Positions 29,879-34,483 of a stretch of DNA of 64,000 nucleotides are shown piece by piece. The DNA is taken from positions 39,305 to 103,304 of the forward strand of contig JBBDYJ010000014.1 in the NCBI GenBank assembly GCA_040901675.1, read 5' to 3'. The stretch is from Pirellulales bacterium. GTDB taxonomy: Bacteria; Planctomycetota; Planctomycetia; Pirellulales; JAICIG01. Under the pieces are notes generated by a model. That model saw only the letters and a list, made by a program, of their open reading frames with translations. It searched no databases and was not told the origin of the DNA. The position numbers and the translations under genes were made by a program. Within the stretch, counting starts at the first letter, position 1; every line of letters starts with the position of its first letter.

Positions 29879-29951
29879 TGACCCGTATGGGAATCGAACC
29901 CATCTTTCCAGCGTGAGAGGCTGGTGTCCTGGACCGATAGACGAACGGGCC
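29879..29951 (-). tRNA. tRNA-Glu (anticodon CTC)
   Basis: GGCCCGT..ACGGGTC-A acceptor; loop CTCTCAC; T-loop GGTTCGATT; E. coli tRNA-Glu-like D-arm. Confidence 0.8.
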
Positions 29952-29967
29952 GTTGTTTTTATCAAGA

Positions 29968-30048
29968 TCCGTCGGGCAGGAGTCGAACCTGCACAGCGCG
30001 CGGCGGGTGGTTTACAGCCACTTGGGCTCGCCATTGCCCAGCCGACGG
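29968..30048 (-). tRNA. tRNA-Tyr (anticodon GTA)
   Basis: Acceptor CCGTCGG/CCGACGG; loop CTGTAAA; long variable arm. Confidence 0.75.
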
Positions 30049-30069
30049 TTGAAGTGGTGACGGCGGAAG

Positions 30070-30143
30070 TCGGCGTGGTCGGATTTGAACCGACGCTCTC
30101 CTGCTCCCGAAGCAGGCGGAATCCCAGGCTTTCCTACACGCCG
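30070..30143 (-). tRNA. tRNA-Pro (anticodon CGG)
   Basis: Acceptor CGGCGTG/CACGCCG; loop TTCGGGA; T-loop GGTTCAAAT. Confidence 0.75.
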
Positions 30144-30195
30144 CGGTGGGCCAGACCCTCAGCGGGCCAAACTCTCAGCGGGCCAATACACTCAG

Positions 30196-30269
30196 TGGGC
30201 GCGGAGGGAGTCGAACCCTCGACCTGGTCCTTATAAGAGACTTGCTCTGGCCCGCTGAGCTACGCGCCG
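30196..30269 (-). tRNA. tRNA-Ile-like (anticodon TAT) with a C1:C72 acceptor mismatch
   Basis: GTAGCTCAGCGGGCCAGAGC D-arm; loop CTTATAA; T-loop GGTTCGACT. Confidence 0.55.
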
Positions 30270-30297
30270 CCGTAAAGGCCAGGCGAACCTGGCTCAG

Positions 30298-30369
30298 TGG
30301 GGCCGAAGGGAGTCGAACCCTTACCTTCCCGCTTAAAAGGCGGAAGCGCTGCCGTTACGCCACGACCCC
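30298..30369 (-). tRNA. tRNA-Lys (anticodon TTT)
   Basis: Acceptor GGGGTCG/CGGCCCC; loop CTTTTAA. Confidence 0.8.
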
Positions 30370-30442
30370 GCAATGTGGCTTGGGGTGGGCGTATGCGTTT
30401 GAGACGGGATGTTCGCTGCATGGTGACCTCGCTGCCTTCCAG

Positions 30443-30513
30443 TTGTCCGGGGTGGAGTCGAACCACCGCCGGCGACGTATCAGATCGCTATGCTCCCGTT
30501 ACAACACCGGACA
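30443..30513 (-). tRNA. tRNA-Ile (anticodon GAT), weak D-stem
   Basis: Acceptor TGTCCGG/CCGGACA; AC stem GCGAT/GTCGC with loop CTGATAC. Confidence 0.55.
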
Positions 30514-30701
30514 ATGATTCAGGACTACCGGGGCTTGCAGGACTACTAGGCTCCGGAGCCCCGGCAATCCCACCCGCGCAGCGGACAGGACGCGGCAGGG
30601 CCGGCGGGCCAGTGCCCTCAACTTCCTTAGACGCGGGCCGAGGGCTCCGGGTTCGCACGCAACGGCGGAAATGGCCTCCCAAACCGGTCCCAAGTGCGGC
30701 G

Positions 30702-31400
30702 TCAGCCGGTCAATGCGTCCACCGGGGCTTGTGCTTCGACAAGCAACTCTTCGAACAACGCCAGCCCAGGGAGCAAGTTCGGCGCCTCGGCAGGCTCGTC
30801 GATCGACGGCCGCTTCTGGCCGTGGAGCCAGAGACGGAAGCGGCCGTCGTCAATCTCCCACCGCTCGACCGAGTCCAGCGGGATGGTGACTGCCTCCCTG
30901 CGGCCTAGCAGTCCCGCGGCCTGGTACTCGATCCGATCGCGGACGAGCCGCAAATGGTCTGTCCAGGGGGAATGGCCCGCCGCCTCGAGCTCGCCGCGCA
31001 GGCGCGTTTTTACCGTCTCGGTCGACCGGTCGAGGATATGCGTCACCAGCGGAATCGGGTGCGGGTACGTCAAATCGAGGTCGAGATCCTCCGCTAAGCT
31101 GCCAGGCCGCGGCTTGAGCCCGATCACGAACTGCGTTCCCATGTAGCCCATGTCGGAGAAGACGCGGCTGGCCTTCCACGAGAAGCCGGCGAGCTGGTCG
31201 AAGCGGATCGCATGCTCCTTGCGGCCACGCTTCTGGCGGACGCCAAACTGGCAAACGCGCAACACGTCGCGCGATGGGATCGAGGCCTTGATGAAGATAA
31301 ACGCGAGCGGGATCGTCAGCAGCTTGTAGCCCAATCCGACGGGGCTGGTCCAAATACAGGCGGCAATGAACACGGCCCCGGCCGCCATGCCAACGTGCAT
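30702..31400 (-). CDS. Hypothetical membrane protein
   Basis: 232 aa with N-terminal TM helices and a soluble C-terminus. Confidence 0.45.
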   Translation of the reverse strand: MHVGMAAGAVFIAACIWTSPVGLGYKLLTIPLAFIFIKASIPSRDVLRVCQFGVRQKRGRKEHAIRFDQLAGFSWKASRVFSDMGYMGTQFVIGLKPRPGSLAEDLDLDLTYPHPIPLVTHILDRSTETVKTRLRGELEAAGHSPWTDHLRLVRDRIEYQAAGLLGRREAVTIPLDSVERWEIDDGRFRLWLHGQKRPSIDEPAEAPNLLPGLALFEELLVEAQAPVDALTG

Positions 31401-31450
31401 GCGCTTCGGCTTCGAAGAATAATAACTCCGGTCCCTGGGTGCGAGCGCTG

Positions 31451-32551
31451 CTACAACAGATTGACGACGCGGTCGGCCAGGCCCTTTTCACCCAGCACGA
31501 CGTTCAGCTTGCCGGCCGAGGCGACCTTCTCCAGCACCTCCAGCTCCTTGAGACGCATCAACGTCGGGCTTTCCTGGAGCAACCGGGCCGTGTTGGCCTG
31601 GCTGCGCATGGCGGCCGTCTCCTCGCGGCGGGCGATCAGGTTGGCCTCGGCGGCCTTCTTGGCCTCCGTGACCTTGTTCATCAGGTCCTTCATTTCGCCC
31701 GGTAGAATCACGTCGCGGACGCCTACCGAAATCAGTTCCAGACCCAGCACGGCCGCACGGGGGCGGACCACGTCGGCCAGTTCCTGCGCGACCGCGTCTT
31801 TTTCGGCCAGGAACAGATCGAGCTCGCGAGAGCCCACGATGGCGCGCAGCGCCATCTGGGCCTCGCGGTACAGCGACTGGCGCACGTCGTCGGCCACGCT
31901 CACGGCCTGGCGAGCATCGGCGACGCGATAAGTCACTACGGCGTTGAGGCGCAGTGTCACCTTGTCCGCGGTCATGATCTCCTGGCCGCTGATATCGAGC
32001 ATCGCTTCGCGCAGGTCCTGCTGGACACACTTGACCTGGGCCATGTTCTTCCAGAAGGCATAGCGGCCCGGGGGCAGCGTCTCGACGTAGTCGCCGTCGA
32101 TCAAAAGGACGCCCTGGCAGTGTGGCTCGACCGTGGTCAGATCGAGCACGCGCTCCACCAACGGCGAACGCGAGATCACCGGCAGGTCCTTATGCTCGAA
32201 ACGTACGCGGCGAGCGTCGACCACCTCGACCTTCACTTCCCGCAGCAGCGTCCAATAGGCATACAAGCCCGGCGGCAGAACGTGGCTGAAGCGGCCTTCG
32301 ATCCAGACCAAGGCGCGCTGGTAGTCCTTCAAGTCGACAACGACGGCCCGGTCCTGCAGCGCGCCGGAGCGGACGATCACGTCGAGCTTGTCGTGCACCA
32401 GCCACGGATCACGCTGCGAGACAACGTCGACGCGGACCTTGCCCAGCGGATCGAAGATCCAATAGTGGCCGGGCGGGACCAGACCCTCAAACTCGTCCTC
32501 CCGGAAGCGAAGGCCCATTTCGTAGCTGCGGATTTTGACGCGATGGAACAT
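31451..32551 (-). CDS. SPFH/band-7 (stomatin/prohibitin-like) domain protein
   Basis: SPFH core plus coiled-coil tail (..AQMALRAIVGSRELDLFLAEKDAVAQEL..). Confidence 0.8.
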   Translation of the reverse strand: MFHRVKIRSYEMGLRFREDEFEGLVPPGHYWIFDPLGKVRVDVVSQRDPWLVHDKLDVIVRSGALQDRAVVVDLKDYQRALVWIEGRFSHVLPPGLYAYWTLLREVKVEVVDARRVRFEHKDLPVISRSPLVERVLDLTTVEPHCQGVLLIDGDYVETLPPGRYAFWKNMAQVKCVQQDLREAMLDISGQEIMTADKVTLRLNAVVTYRVADARQAVSVADDVRQSLYREAQMALRAIVGSRELDLFLAEKDAVAQELADVVRPRAAVLGLELISVGVRDVILPGEMKDLMNKVTEAKKAAEANLIARREETAAMRSQANTARLLQESPTLMRLKELEVLEKVASAGKLNVVLGEKGLADRVVNLL

Positions 32552-33697: not shown

Positions 33698-33768
33698 GTG
33701 GACCGCCGGGGAGTCGAACCCCGATCTCCTGGTTGCAGGCCAGGTGTCTTCCCGTTGGACCAGCAGCC
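33698..33768 (-). tRNA. tRNA-Ala (anticodon TGC)
   Basis: G3:U70 identity pair present; loop CCTGCAA; discriminator A. Confidence 0.75.
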
Positions 33769-33783
33769 CTTGTTTTTCTTGCA

Positions 33784-33854
33784 GAGGTCCGTCCGGGAAT
33801 TGAACCCGGCCCTCCTCCTTACCGAGGAGGCGTGCCGCCGAAACACCTACAGAC
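33784..33854 (-). tRNA. tRNA-Thr-like (anticodon GGT) with C33
   Basis: Acceptor GGTCTGT/ACGGACC; AC stem CCTCC/GGAGG with loop TCGGTAA; T-loop GGTTCAATT. Confidence 0.5.
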
Positions 33855-33868
33855 CGAACTTTTTCAAA

Positions 33869-33941
33869 ATGATCCCGGATGGAATCGAACCATCGCTTTC
33901 CTGGTTGTCATCCAGGCGTCTTTGCCGTTGGACCACGGGAT
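33869..33941 (-). tRNA. tRNA-Val (anticodon GAC)
   Basis: Perfect acceptor GATCCCG/CGGGATC; loop ATGACAA; 3-bp D-stem like the Ala tRNA. Confidence 0.7.
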
Positions 33942-33953
33942 CCAGCGTCCGCA

Positions 33954-34029
33954 GTGGCCGAGGTGGGAGTCGAACCCACAGAGTCACGAGGCCCTCGACC
34001 TCGTCGCTTTTCCCGTTTGCGTACCCGGC
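33954..34029 (-). tRNA. tRNA-like gene, anticodon ambiguous (GAG reading, C33, short variable arm)
   Basis: Acceptor GGCCGGG/CTCGGCC; AC stem CGAGG/CCTCG with loop TCGAGGG; T-loop GGTTCGACT. Confidence 0.4.
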
Positions 34030-34105
34030 CGTTGAAAAAGGAGGAAGGAGGAAGGAGGAATCAGAACAGGATTCCTTCAGTCACGTCCCTTCCAATTTTT
34101 GTTAA

Positions 34106-34174
34106 GTTGCAGGTCCGGGAGTCGCACCCGGCGTGCGGAGCTTATGAGGCTCCACTGAGCACTGGCTCACCTGC
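34106..34174 (-). tRNA. tRNA(CAT)-like (Met/Ile2 type), 69 nt, C1:A72 mismatch, truncated D-arm, T-loop TGCGACT
   Basis: AC stem GGAGC/GCTCC with loop CTCATAA. Confidence 0.4.
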
Positions 34175-34240
34175 GGCATCGCGGCGACGAAGGAGTAAGG
34201 GGTAATCCGTATGGCCCCCTCTTCGACCGCCTTTCAAAAA

Positions 34241-34315
34241 GCGTCCCCGGCGGGATTTGAACCCGCGGCCTCCACCTTGACAGGGTGGCGAGCACTCCAG
34301 GCTGCTCCACGAGGA
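34241..34315 (-). tRNA. tRNA-Asp (anticodon GTC)
   Basis: Loop CTGTCAA; discriminator G; T-loop GGTTCAAAT. Confidence 0.75.
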
Positions 34316-34337
34316 CGGTTCTCTGCGTGTTTCTTCA

Positions 34338-34408
34338 GCTCGGGGAGATGGATTCGAACCACCACGACCTGGTTCAAAGCCAGGCGGCCTGCCGTTAGCC
34401 GATCCCCG
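34338..34408 (-). tRNA. tRNA-Gln (anticodon TTG)
   Basis: Acceptor TCGGGGA/TCCCCGA; loop CTTTGAA. Confidence 0.75.
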
Positions 34409-34409
34409 A

Positions 34410-34483
34410 GTGGCTCGTATGGGAATCGAACCCATCTCCCCGCCTTGAAAGGGCGGTATCCTCAAACCGATAGACGAACGAGC
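34410..34483 (-). tRNA. tRNA-Glu (anticodon TTC)
   Basis: Acceptor GGCTCGT/ACGAGCC; loop CTTTCAA; GTCTATCGGTTTGAGGA D-arm. Confidence 0.8.

Follow-up and report, generated by a model that had tools for sequence, protein, structure and literature searches.

A probable reduced and rearranged copy of a conserved Planctomycetia operon linking a tRNA array to an SPFH protein gene, a tRNA-like element and a structured RNA

Why would a bacterium of the Pirellulales carry about 20 tRNA genes, closely packed on one strand, within 4.6 kb of its DNA? The window, by which we mean the whole 64,000-nucleotide stretch analysed here (contig JBBDYJ010000014.1), had initially been annotated as holding such a minus-strand array, split in two by an SPFH protein gene and with about a third of its members non-canonical. 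ARAGORN called 19 minus-strand tRNA genes across 29879-34484, their anticodons agreeing with those first listed, and a twentieth unit (CAT), which the program missed, was recovered by homology, so that the density holds (20 units over 4.6 kb, with 1.3 kb holding 13 of them). The CAT unit aligns with the "Met-CAT" member from the equivalent array position in other loci, with which it has in common the acceptor GCAGGT/ACCTGC and the T-loop UGCGACU. In a local Rfam search the tRNA model supports 16 of the 19 ARAGORN tRNAs (41-65 bits; gathering score 29), while the sole match of Ser-GCT and Trp-CCA is to the tRNA-Sec model, below threshold, and Arg-GCG has none. With four units failing the tRNA model and three bearing C33 in place of U33, the estimate of a non-canonical third is roughly right. 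We propose, as an account that we think likely while leaving considerable room for doubt, that the window holds a reduced, rearranged copy of a conserved Planctomycetia operon, in which a conditional array of spare tRNAs is fused to a predicted Band-7/tRNA-like RNA-repair cofactor module. Its features are as follows.

34590..34691, minus strand: conserved array leader (nhmmer profile)
34502..34605, minus strand: window-specific tandem repeat (TRF)
33185..34484, minus strand: array block 1, in the order of the canonical array of relatives (ARAGORN except where stated)
34410-34484, minus strand: Glu-TTC
34338-34409, minus strand: Gln-TTG
34241-34316, minus strand: Asp-GTC
~34108-34174, minus strand: CAT unit (homology)
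33954-34030, minus strand: Leu-GAG
33870-33942, minus strand: Val-GAC
33784-33855, minus strand: Thr-GGT
33698-33769, minus strand: Ala-TGC
33588-33675, minus strand: Ser-GCT
33457-33527, minus strand: Trp-CCA
33379-33453, minus strand: Thr-TGT
33292-33364, minus strand: Arg-CCG
33185-33259, minus strand: Arg-GCG
32993..33066, minus strand: tRNA-like element X, "tRNA-Arg-ACG" of ARAGORN (nhmmer E 4e-20)
32624..32975, minus strand: structured non-coding RNA, ~350 nt (nhmmer, covariation)
31451..32551, minus strand: stomatin-like SPFH/Band-7 ("slipin") protein, 366 aa (PF01145, E 6e-29)
30702..31400, minus strand: 232-aa ORF, N-terminus hydrophobic, without an assigned family (no Pfam, PADLOC or PHROG match)
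29879..30513, minus strand: array block 2 (ARAGORN and Rfam)
30442-30513, minus strand: Ile-GAT
30297-30369, minus strand: Lys-TTT
30195-30269, minus strand: Ile-TAT
30069-30143, minus strand: Pro-CGG
29968-30048, minus strand: Tyr-GTA
29879-29951, minus strand: Glu-CTC

The same architecture, laid out on one strand as terminator leader, tRNA genes, X, ~350-nt structured RNA and SPFH gene, recurs in dozens of divergent genomes (Planctomycetota MAGs and isolates), with SPFH orthologues of 68-81% identity. All loci were gathered via the SPFH gene, and counts on X and the structured RNA refer to SPFH-linked loci. A cassette carries 0-40 tRNA genes in conserved order, with an HNH gene within the full arrays (conserved in 33 loci). 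Among the 45 genome loci with sufficient upstream sequence, 21 have 20-40 tRNAs ahead of the SPFH orthologue, on its strand and in the same order, and the others have 0-19; across loci the anticodon is conserved according to array position. As the cassette is also present in the closed isolate chromosomes of Adhaeretor mobilis and Lacipirellula limnantheis, misassembly, raised at the outset in the form of a misplaced phage island, is unlikely. Furthermore, the SPFH gene is the conserved 3' partner of the array and not a gene splitting it: the sub-orders in block 2 are those of the canonical arrays L002, L021 and L032, and this block consists of two segments from the 5' half of the canonical array, moved downstream of the SPFH gene. 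In addition to being in two blocks, the window copy is missing roughly half of the canonical tRNAs, the HNH gene and Cys-GCA; with no tRNA for Phe, Gly, Asn, His or Cys, it cannot serve as a full backup set.

The element X, which had been counted as an array tRNA, is instead a member of a tRNA-like family: 75 of 85 loci have such an element ahead of the SPFH gene, at a distance of 330-1300 nt. The family has conserved D, anticodon and T arms; its anticodon-loop positions 33-36 form a hypervariable, nearly random stretch (entropy 1.4-1.8 bits) and its acceptor stem has 3-6 of 7 pairs, never 7 (6 of 7 in the window, with one C-C mismatch). The structured RNA that follows is found as a single nhmmer match per locus in 76 of 88 loci, and no conserved ORF was found in its region. 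It presents a GNRA hairpin (32961-32974), a long-range closing helix P1 (32937-32952 with 32629-32642) with six nested helices within, and a U run (32624-32627) after the helices; no helix enclosing both X and this RNA was found. RNAalifold recovers 46 pairs, 30 of them changed on both sides; the share of cells that are paired is 92.8%, versus 32-47% with the partners slid, none of 500 shuffles reaches any of the covariation measures, and the window copy folds with z = -6.7. It had no match in Rfam, whose Y RNA families likewise match none of the cassette RNAs; it is a previously unlisted RNA with strong covariation. The SPFH protein has no transmembrane segment, combines three N-terminal five-stranded beta modules with an SPFH core and a long C-terminal helix, and had no match in a PADLOC search. 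The status of the adjacent 232-aa ORF as a real gene is uncertain: it has no Pfam, PADLOC or PHROG match, and tblastn finds it in the window only, with no conservation at other loci.

At the 5' end of the cassette, the leader profile matches the window (E 3e-16) and 36 loci, minimal loci and a viral contig included, always 1-250 nt ahead of the first tRNA; an Rfam search with the leader gave no match. Besides UUGCGCUUGUGACGCUGGGCC (34664-34644) and a short variable hairpin, the leader includes an intrinsic terminator (hairpin 34620-34596, U tract 34595-34590). The element GUGACGCUGGGCC (34656-34644) is complementary to the 5' arm of the terminator at 13/13 positions, which makes it a candidate antiterminator; this pairing is the MFE fold of the leader and shows little covariation, such that the proposal rests on complementarity and the MFE fold. 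The tandem repeat consists of five copies of the terminator 3' arm and its U tract (GGCACCGGGUUUUUUGUUG; period 18-20, 5.2 copies, 91-95% matches in TRF). The regions ahead of 25 other arrays yielded nothing comparable; in one of them, L030, there is a short unrelated 23-nt repeat.

These losses bring up the alternative that the window array is a decaying remnant of a mobile-element or prophage cassette with no present function. It can draw on the missing members, HNH gene and Cys-GCA, the rearrangement into two blocks, the tandem amplification of a terminator arm and the absence of repair or mobility genes next to the array, but we regard it as unlikely, given the state of what survives. In the tRNA families the cloverleaf is preserved: 97-100% of pairs are canonical, and each family has 5-17 compensatory pairs. 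The 18 surviving window tRNAs show 8 mismatches at conserved columns versus 7 for the sum of family medians; they are as intact as the members in relatives. X, the structured RNA, the leader and the SPFH ORF are likewise all intact, and reduced versions with leader, X, RNA and SPFH gene are common, which suggests a selected core. Nor do the non-canonical members speak for decay: C33 is present in 28 of 29 Leu-GAG genes, other unusual anticodon loops also occur, and, being conserved family traits with compensatory changes, these are selected variants and not pseudogenes. Purifying selection acts on the structure of the tRNAs, of X and of the structured RNA.

A second alternative takes the SPFH gene and its tRNA-like leader to be a chromosomal unit, beside which mobile arrays insert because X resembles a tRNA attachment site; their linkage would then be devoid of functional meaning. 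tRNA genes are classic integration sites, X, structured RNA and SPFH gene are present without an array in 12 of the 45 loci, and integrases or recombinases lie close to some cassettes. However, even minimal loci retain the leader at the 5' end, indicating that the stretch from leader to SPFH gene behaves as a single unit; cassette order and orientation are constant; the entire unit, SPFH gene included, is duplicated on one contig (L013 and L021) and carried within a phage genome; and the flanking genes vary among loci, implying that the cassette moves as a whole. We therefore consider insertion at a hot-spot improbable. The suggested link to mobile or phage-derived elements holds for relatives, some of whose arrays adjoin integrases and defence islands; one cassette lies within a phage contig, with phage-like genes on one side and, downstream, terminase and portal genes. 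It does not extend to the window, where no phage or integrase gene was found near the island; the surroundings are ordinary chromosomal genes, and the island has the GC of its flanks (0.63-0.65). Nearly all cassette copies found are chromosomal: IMG/VR has only two distinct contigs with the SPFH gene together with X, and GenBank phages no close SPFH homologue.

Contextual information from the relatives points to RNA repair. Genes for RtcB, RtcA, RlaP or KptA adjoin about 10 of about 85 loci (L002, L010, L014, L017, L021, L036, L058, L069 and L073), and Adhaeretor mobilis has, in this order, RtcB, RtcA, leader, 30 tRNAs, X, structured RNA, SPFH and RlaP, with KptA nearby; the window copy has none of these four genes, nor an HNH gene, nearby. 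This association would be unexpected if a phage-derived tRNA set fitted the codon usage of mobile elements rather than protecting against tRNA damage. Such compensation is the classical explanation of phage tRNAs in the introduction to PMC10264068, and accords with the cassette near terminase and portal genes, but full arrays cover nearly all anticodons rather than a biased subset and most copies lie in chromosomes without phage genes, leaving it highly improbable. Least probable of all is that the array is the organism's main source of these tRNAs: although Leu-TAG (14281-14364) is the single further tRNA gene in the 64-kb window, a count that speaks for the window and not the whole genome, array presence varies among close relatives, array-less Aeoliella SH292, with X alone at the corresponding locus, has a full complement of 46 tRNA genes against up to 77 in relatives (PMC13315336), the long variable arm of the stand-alone Leu-TAG is absent from array Leu tRNAs, and C33, G8 and further departures are frequent in a set incomplete for five amino acids. 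The arrays are supernumerary tRNA genes.

Based on these observations, we posit that the conserved operon probably gives cells a means of withstanding attacks on their tRNAs. The terminator/antiterminator of the leader would gate transcription, making expression conditional; RNase P and RNase Z would release the tRNAs, with CCA added afterwards; and these spares, many of which have atypical anticodon loops (C33, for instance), might sustain translation once anticodon nucleases, toxins or other translational stress cleave or deplete the housekeeping tRNAs. The loops parallel the changes in phage tRNA loops proposed as an escape from anticodon nucleases (PMC10264068). The soluble stomatin-like protein, X and the structured RNA could act as a scaffold or cofactor for the handling of damaged RNA, by analogy with Ro60 and Y RNA next to RtcB. 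[quoted passage not shown] A Band-7 protein with a b7a-tRNA beside RtcB was predicted by Burroughs and Aravind 2016; as far as this prediction is set out where it is cited (bioRxiv 10.1101/312249), its tRNA-like non-coding RNA directly precedes the Band-7 gene, as here. In several relatives RtcB, RtcA, RlaP nucleotidyltransferase and KptA stand alongside, whereas the window lacks an RNA ligase or other repair gene. The account given there makes no mention of an array of real tRNAs or of a ~350-nt structured RNA separating the tRNA-like element from the Band-7 gene.

The long arrays known as "tRNA array units" or "L-arrays", such as the trn operon of Anabaena PCC 7120, are alike in comprising dozens of same-strand, close-packed, non-periodic, supernumerary tRNA genes, in a patchy distribution implying horizontal transfer and in having an HNH homing endonuclease as neighbour. 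Both surveys that link them to such transfer name Planctomycetes among the phyla bearing them (Tran et al. 2016, PMC4758250; Santamaria-Gomez et al. 2021, PMC8421152). The Anabaena array is conditionally expressed, translational stress inducing it along with the co-regulated rtcB (PMC8421152), via promoter direct repeats where the present cassette has a terminator leader. Unlike those arrays, the cassette has a fixed operon frame (terminator leader at the 5' end; X, structured RNA and SPFH gene at the 3' end) that persists despite tRNA loss, and SPFH has 0 occurrences in the searchable texts on long tRNA arrays. Phage tRNA clusters (T4 segB region, T5, mycobacteriophage cluster C1; PMC10264068, PMC11555353) share large sets, altered anticodon loops and an embedded HNH gene, but cassette copies are nearly all chromosomal. 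The rsr-yrlBA-rtcBA operon of Salmonella (bioRxiv 10.1101/312249; PMC7790460) similarly joins a gene for an oligomeric or ring-type scaffold, Rsr (Ro60), to a non-coding RNA with a tRNA-like domain (YrlA/Y RNA) and to RtcB/RtcA, both systems being linked to damaged tRNAs; Rsr has the TROVE fold rather than a stomatin-like SPFH one, and the Y RNA domains are nested where the tRNA-like unit here is adjacent to the large structured domain. Finally, the SPFH protein resembles the major vault protein in its N-terminal beta repeats, SPFH-like domain and long helix, aligning with it over about 410 columns (Foldseek, E about 5e-10), and, as in the vault particle with its vault RNA, there is a link between the gene and small structured RNAs.

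We observed that the minus-strand tRNA cluster of the window is one copy of a conserved mobile operon that joins a long tRNA array, a Band-7/tRNA-like module and a new structured RNA. ARAGORN called 19 minus-strand tRNA genes at 29879-34484 of the 64-kb window, with one further tRNA, Leu-TAG, on the plus strand far from the array. The elements of this copy, read along the minus strand, are:

34590-34691, minus: leader, whose upstream segment can pair 13/13 with the 5' arm of its terminator
33185-34484, minus: array block 1, by ARAGORN Glu-TTC, Gln-TTG, Asp-GTC, Leu-GAG, Val-GAC, Thr-GGT, Ala-TGC, Ser-GCT, Trp-CCA, Thr-TGT, Arg-CCG and Arg-GCG
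in the gap 34031-34240, minus: CAT unit, missed by ARAGORN, which aligns with the same-position 'Met-CAT' of other arrays
32993-33066, minus: ARAGORN's 'Arg-ACG' unit, next after block 1 (tRNA-like element X)
32624-32975, minus: window copy of the structured RNA, fold z = -6.7
31451-32551, minus: Band_7/SPFH gene, between the array blocks
between the array blocks, same strand: orf232, an ORF of 232 residues with no family assigned
29879-30513, minus: array block 2, by ARAGORN Ile-GAT, Lys-TTT, Ile-TAT, Pro-CGG, Tyr-GTA and Glu-CTC

The dense array of about 20 minus-strand units in two blocks described in the initial annotation is thus accurate, the CAT unit being added by homology to the 19 ARAGORN calls, and the identity of the units as tRNAs held up in that 16 of these 19 also match the Rfam tRNA model at 41-65 bits. 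Of the remainder, Ser-GCT and Trp-CCA gave a below-threshold match to the tRNA-Sec model only, and Arg-GCG (33185-33259) had no Rfam match. By the definition of Tran et al. (2016), a long array has no fewer than 20 tRNA genes, packed at 2 per kb or more; the window count is 20 units over 4.6 kb, or 4.3 per kb, and drops to 19 true members once X is set aside. All lie on a single strand with within-block spacers of 0-210 nt, as expected of genes sharing one orientation and co-transcription, and no gene pattern is repeated within the window, the array being non-periodic like other long arrays. Between the two blocks lie 2.4 kb with two ORFs on the same strand, and the GC content of the island is that of its flanks. 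Short tandem repeats were seen at 34038-34060 (AAGGAGG, 3.3 copies, plus strand, between the CAT unit and Leu-GAG) and at 30148-30200 (a 16-nt unit, 3.2 copies, between Ile-TAT and Pro-CGG).

Relatives of this copy were collected through the SPFH gene. Its product matches a 'slipin family protein' of a Pirellulales MAG at 100% identity and has thousands of homologues; an exact look-up of the protein and of P0001 returned no record, and homologues were used instead. A scan of one genome per species yielded at least 526 relatives, and the best 80 loci derive nearly all from Planctomycetota, closed isolate genomes included. In the contigs of a 78%-identical homologue, 38 tRNA genes lie directly 5' on the same strand in an order partly that of the window. 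An HNH gene lies within the array, and its surroundings include KptA, an integrase and defence genes of the Bub and BREX types. Among 45 non-redundant loci with sufficient upstream sequence, at least 20 tRNAs precede SPFH in 21, 10-19 in five, 3-9 in seven and 0-2 in twelve. The full arrays of the relatives comprise 27-40 tRNAs in a canonical order: Phe, Glu-TTC ... Leu-GAG, Val-GAC, Thr-GGT, Ala-TGC, Ser-GCT, Arg-TCT, His, HNH gene, Trp, Thr-TGT, Arg tRNAs, Cys, then SPFH. Relative to this order the window array is a reduced version: Phe, Gly, Asn, His and Cys are missing together with many isoacceptors, as is the HNH gene. Its block 2 is made up of two stretches from the canonical 5' half, relocated 3' of SPFH, so that the SPFH gene, at which the array regularly ends in relatives, does not split it as had been supposed. 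Aeoliella SH292 has X only and no array at the corresponding locus, and its whole genome holds 46 tRNA genes, where members of its family have 46-77; this points to arrays that are supernumerary and patchily distributed among relatives, as is characteristic of long arrays. Anticodons rare in bacteria recur in the arrays, such as Arg-GCG and Ile-UAU (window 30195-30269), as do GNN isoacceptors such as Leu-GAG, Pro-GGG and Ala-GGC. An ARAGORN 'tmRNA' call in one relative (L009, 6638-7010) spans several densely packed array tRNAs and is almost certainly a false positive.

Anticodons are conserved by position in the array. In all 21 tRNA families tested the cloverleaf is kept, with 97-100% canonical pairs as compared with 31-51% in shifted controls, and each family shows compensatory double changes at 5-17 pairs. 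Certain departures from the canonical form were also seen: Leu-GAG has C33 instead of U33 in 28 of 29 genes, C33 also occurs in many Glu-CTC, Val-TAC, Thr and Ala array genes, Arg-GCG has G8, the D-loop of Trp is tiny, and the long variable arm of the window's stand-alone Leu-TAG is missing from most Leu tRNAs of the arrays. The 18 testable window tRNAs show 8 mismatches at columns where 90% or more of the family agree, versus 7 for the sum of the family medians. These alignments argue that the array tRNAs are selected rather than decaying and that their oddities are family traits; the non-canonical members remarked upon in the initial annotation are hence real, but they do not reflect decay. 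The window copy itself may be a relic, a reading that its missing members would suit, or a version that has been trimmed and is still under selection, which its family-like mismatch count would suit; we prefer the latter. An encoded CCA is almost never present in array tRNAs (5 of 945), and since neighbouring stand-alone tRNAs likewise lack it, its absence is not diagnostic. In the array tRNAs of all loci the two bases 3' of the discriminator are mostly C-U (ACUG, ACUC, GCUU), which may represent a shared 3'-processing signal.

The unit labelled 'Arg-ACG' had been counted as an ordinary array tRNA, a view that its relatives do not sustain. A profile search gave 82 matches to X overall, and 75 of the 85 loci have it 5' of SPFH; in the window it lies 441 nt 5' of the SPFH gene on the same strand. 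Its body is nearly constant, with D, anticodon and T arms conserved with covariation, but the anticodon differs in almost every locus (AAG, ATG, AAT, AGG, ACT, GAT, CAG, TTA). Across 70 copies, loop positions 33-36 have an entropy of 1.4-1.8 bits, position 33 is often C or G, and the acceptor stem forms 3-6 of its 7 pairs, never 7; the window copy, with U33 and 6/7 acceptor pairs, happens to resemble a tRNA. Because the loop is variable and the acceptor stem never complete, members of the X family are not decoding tRNAs: the 7-bp acceptor, consistent U33 and conserved anticodon expected of canonical decoding tRNAs are not traits of the 70 copies. The idea that the variable loop pairs with a leader or spacer 'specifier' was rejected (mutual information at most 0.5, low complementarity), and no helix enclosing X and the structured RNA in the manner of Y RNAs was predicted. 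An encoded A-CCA end was seen 3' of X in a single subgroup (L024, L045, L050, L052, L056, L057 and L075). [quoted passage not shown] As quoted in bioRxiv 10.1101/312249, the b7a-tRNA is encoded alongside a Band-7 gene adjacent to RtcB and is without experimental validation. By that quoted description, rather than by sequence, X fits the definition of the b7a-tRNA.

The spacer between X and SPFH measures 330-800 nt and contains conserved blocks, with no small ORF conserved across loci and with similarity in all three frames among close relatives only. RNAalifold applied to 32 sequences predicted a structure of 46 pairs, 30 of which have changed on both sides; 92.8% of the cells are paired, versus 32-47% with the partners slid, and the covariation score is 0.438 versus 0.212 in shuffles, none of the 500 shuffles reaching any of the measures. 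We regard the pair-count control as decisive for this predicted RNA structure of about 350 nt. A long-range helix closes it, pairing GCCC..GGGAGGCGG with CCGCCNCCC..GGGC, usually with a U run 3' of the helix. A profile of the RNA found exactly one copy per locus in 76 of 88 loci. Searches of the 350-nt RNA and the leader from the window and L001, a relative, against Rfam 15 covariance models returned noise-level matches only, at E up to 10; an exact 18-mer of the RNA had no match in viral sequences, and 77 of 80 loci matching a 17-nt motif of it in metagenomes were chance matches.

At the other end of the operon we observed, in 36 loci, a leader of 100-150 nt situated 1-250 nt 5' of the first tRNA and ending in a strong terminator hairpin; its carriers include a viral contig and minimal loci with 1-2 tRNAs left. 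The MFE fold of the window leader is a candidate antiterminator. At 34502-34605 the window repeats the terminator 3' arm and U tract (GGCACCGGGUUUUUUGUUG) in five tandem copies, a repeat found in none of the leaders of 25 other arrays. These leader-derived 18-20-nt repeats being window-only, regulatory tandem repeats upstream of arrays in the style of Anabaena were rejected as a general feature; L030, a further relative, has a short 23-nt repeat upstream of its array that is unrelated to that of the window. No sigma-70-type promoter was detected in 29400-35400. Long arrays are characterised by a low basal expression that rises under translational stress, and a conserved leader with a terminator would fit conditional expression of this kind. 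The frame of the operon is thus leader, 0-40 tRNAs, X, structured RNA and SPFH.

The window gene encodes a Band-7/SPFH domain protein, as does that of the Band-7/b7a-tRNA module. An AF2 model (pLDDT 77) comprises three N-terminal five-stranded beta modules, the SPFH core and a long helix. Foldseek aligned the major vault protein (MVP) weakly over the full SPFH length; the protein does not qualify as an MVP, for which repeat and shoulder domains recognisable in the sequence, together with MVP as the top structural match, would be expected. Neither the SPFH protein nor orf232 had a PADLOC match as anti-phage defence, and orf232, being unique to the window, was discarded as a conserved downstream partner of SPFH.

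We then considered gene neighborhoods. The density of the array had suggested a phage-derived or mobile island, and this stands in part. A complete cassette occurs in an IMG/VR contig (L085) between phage-like genes and large terminase and portal genes, the terminase belonging to phrog_675 (4e-89), and a second viral contig has X and SPFH next to a serine recombinase; the flanks of the cassette vary from locus to locus. The flanks in the window, however, are ordinary chromosomal genes (a DmsA-like oxidoreductase, HAD hydrolase, DMFA2-like protein, HTH regulator, IspH, radical SAM enzyme, DUF1501 and PPDK), none of them a phage structural, packaging or integration gene. Of seven stretches with an X-like pattern in viral sequences, six are ordinary phage tRNAs. 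One contig, CAWDRV010000004.1, bears two complete cassettes (L013 and L021) 50 kb apart, with 35 and 40 tRNAs and an SPFH gene each; their leaders are identical, and one copy has several broken or oversized tRNA calls. In L002, a 38-tRNA cassette is flanked by Bub (ubiquitin-like/E2/JAB-ThiF/BubE) and BREX systems and accompanied by a tyrosine integrase, a defence-island context (1822-4289 and 19100-21113). Clustering of downstream ORFs revealed recurrent genes of RNA repair near cassettes, namely RtcB, RtcA, the RlaP nucleotidyltransferase and KptA, as in L014, L017, L069, L073 and others; the cassette region of Adhaeretor mobilis reads RtcB, RtcA, leader, 30 tRNAs, X, structured RNA, SPFH and RlaP, and KptA is close by. 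By tblastn none of these four is present in the 64-kb window.

We propose that the leader would gate conditional expression of the operon, that the operon would supply substitute tRNAs, with altered anticodon loops that may make them resistant to anticodon nucleases, and that the SPFH protein and its RNAs may assist RNA repair. Anticodon-loop changes in phage tRNAs have been proposed to confer such resistance (PMC10264068; PMC11555353). The closest experimental precedent is the long array of Anabaena, which is induced together with rtcB under translational stress (PMC8421152) and is the subject of the sole functional study of these known yet poorly understood arrays; Planctomycetes are among the phyla with long arrays in both surveys (PMC4758250, PMC8421152). 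For the SPFH protein and its RNAs, Ro60/Y RNA beside RtcB offers a model with a known RNA-repair link (bioRxiv 10.1101/312249), and for SPFH with X the Band-7/b7a-tRNA pair, as cited there, is a proposed RNA-repair module. More speculatively, and as a scheme that we consider rather unlikely in its entirety, the soluble stomatin-like protein might form a ring or cage binding the ~350-nt RNA and X, an RNP that would capture or present damaged tRNAs so that they are repaired or replaced and, with the array and Rtc enzymes, make up a single stress-induced 'tRNA rescue' system under the control of a leader sensing tRNA or translation status. The logic of such a particle would be comparable to that of Ro60/Y RNA or vaults. 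Long arrays were already known, as was, judging from the citing text, the Band-7/b7a-tRNA pair as a published comparative-genomics prediction; here the pair is fused with a long array in one operon in many planctomycete genomes, to which are added a leader of putative regulatory role and a structured RNA that is well supported and missing from Rfam. The literature searched, in which Burroughs and Aravind 2016 is represented by citing text only, contains no description of the array-Band-7 fusion, the 350-nt RNA or the leader. The vague notions that spare tRNAs act as insurance and that SPFH is a scaffold for RNA repair thereby merge into a single concrete hypothesis, testable in cultured full-cassette strains, Adhaeretor mobilis HG15A2 and Lacipirellula limnantheis I41 among them.

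Elsewhere in the window, a group-II-D1D4-6 Rfam match at 45397-45511 on the minus strand (77.5 bits, E 7e-20) overlaps a 588-aa ORF with TPR and glycosyltransferase matches and no reverse transcriptase, and may be an ORF-less intron fragment. A cobalamin riboswitch at 61682-61866 (minus strand, 85.8 bits) lies directly 5' of a TonB-dependent receptor gene (59578-61644, minus strand), which is an ordinary B12-uptake arrangement.
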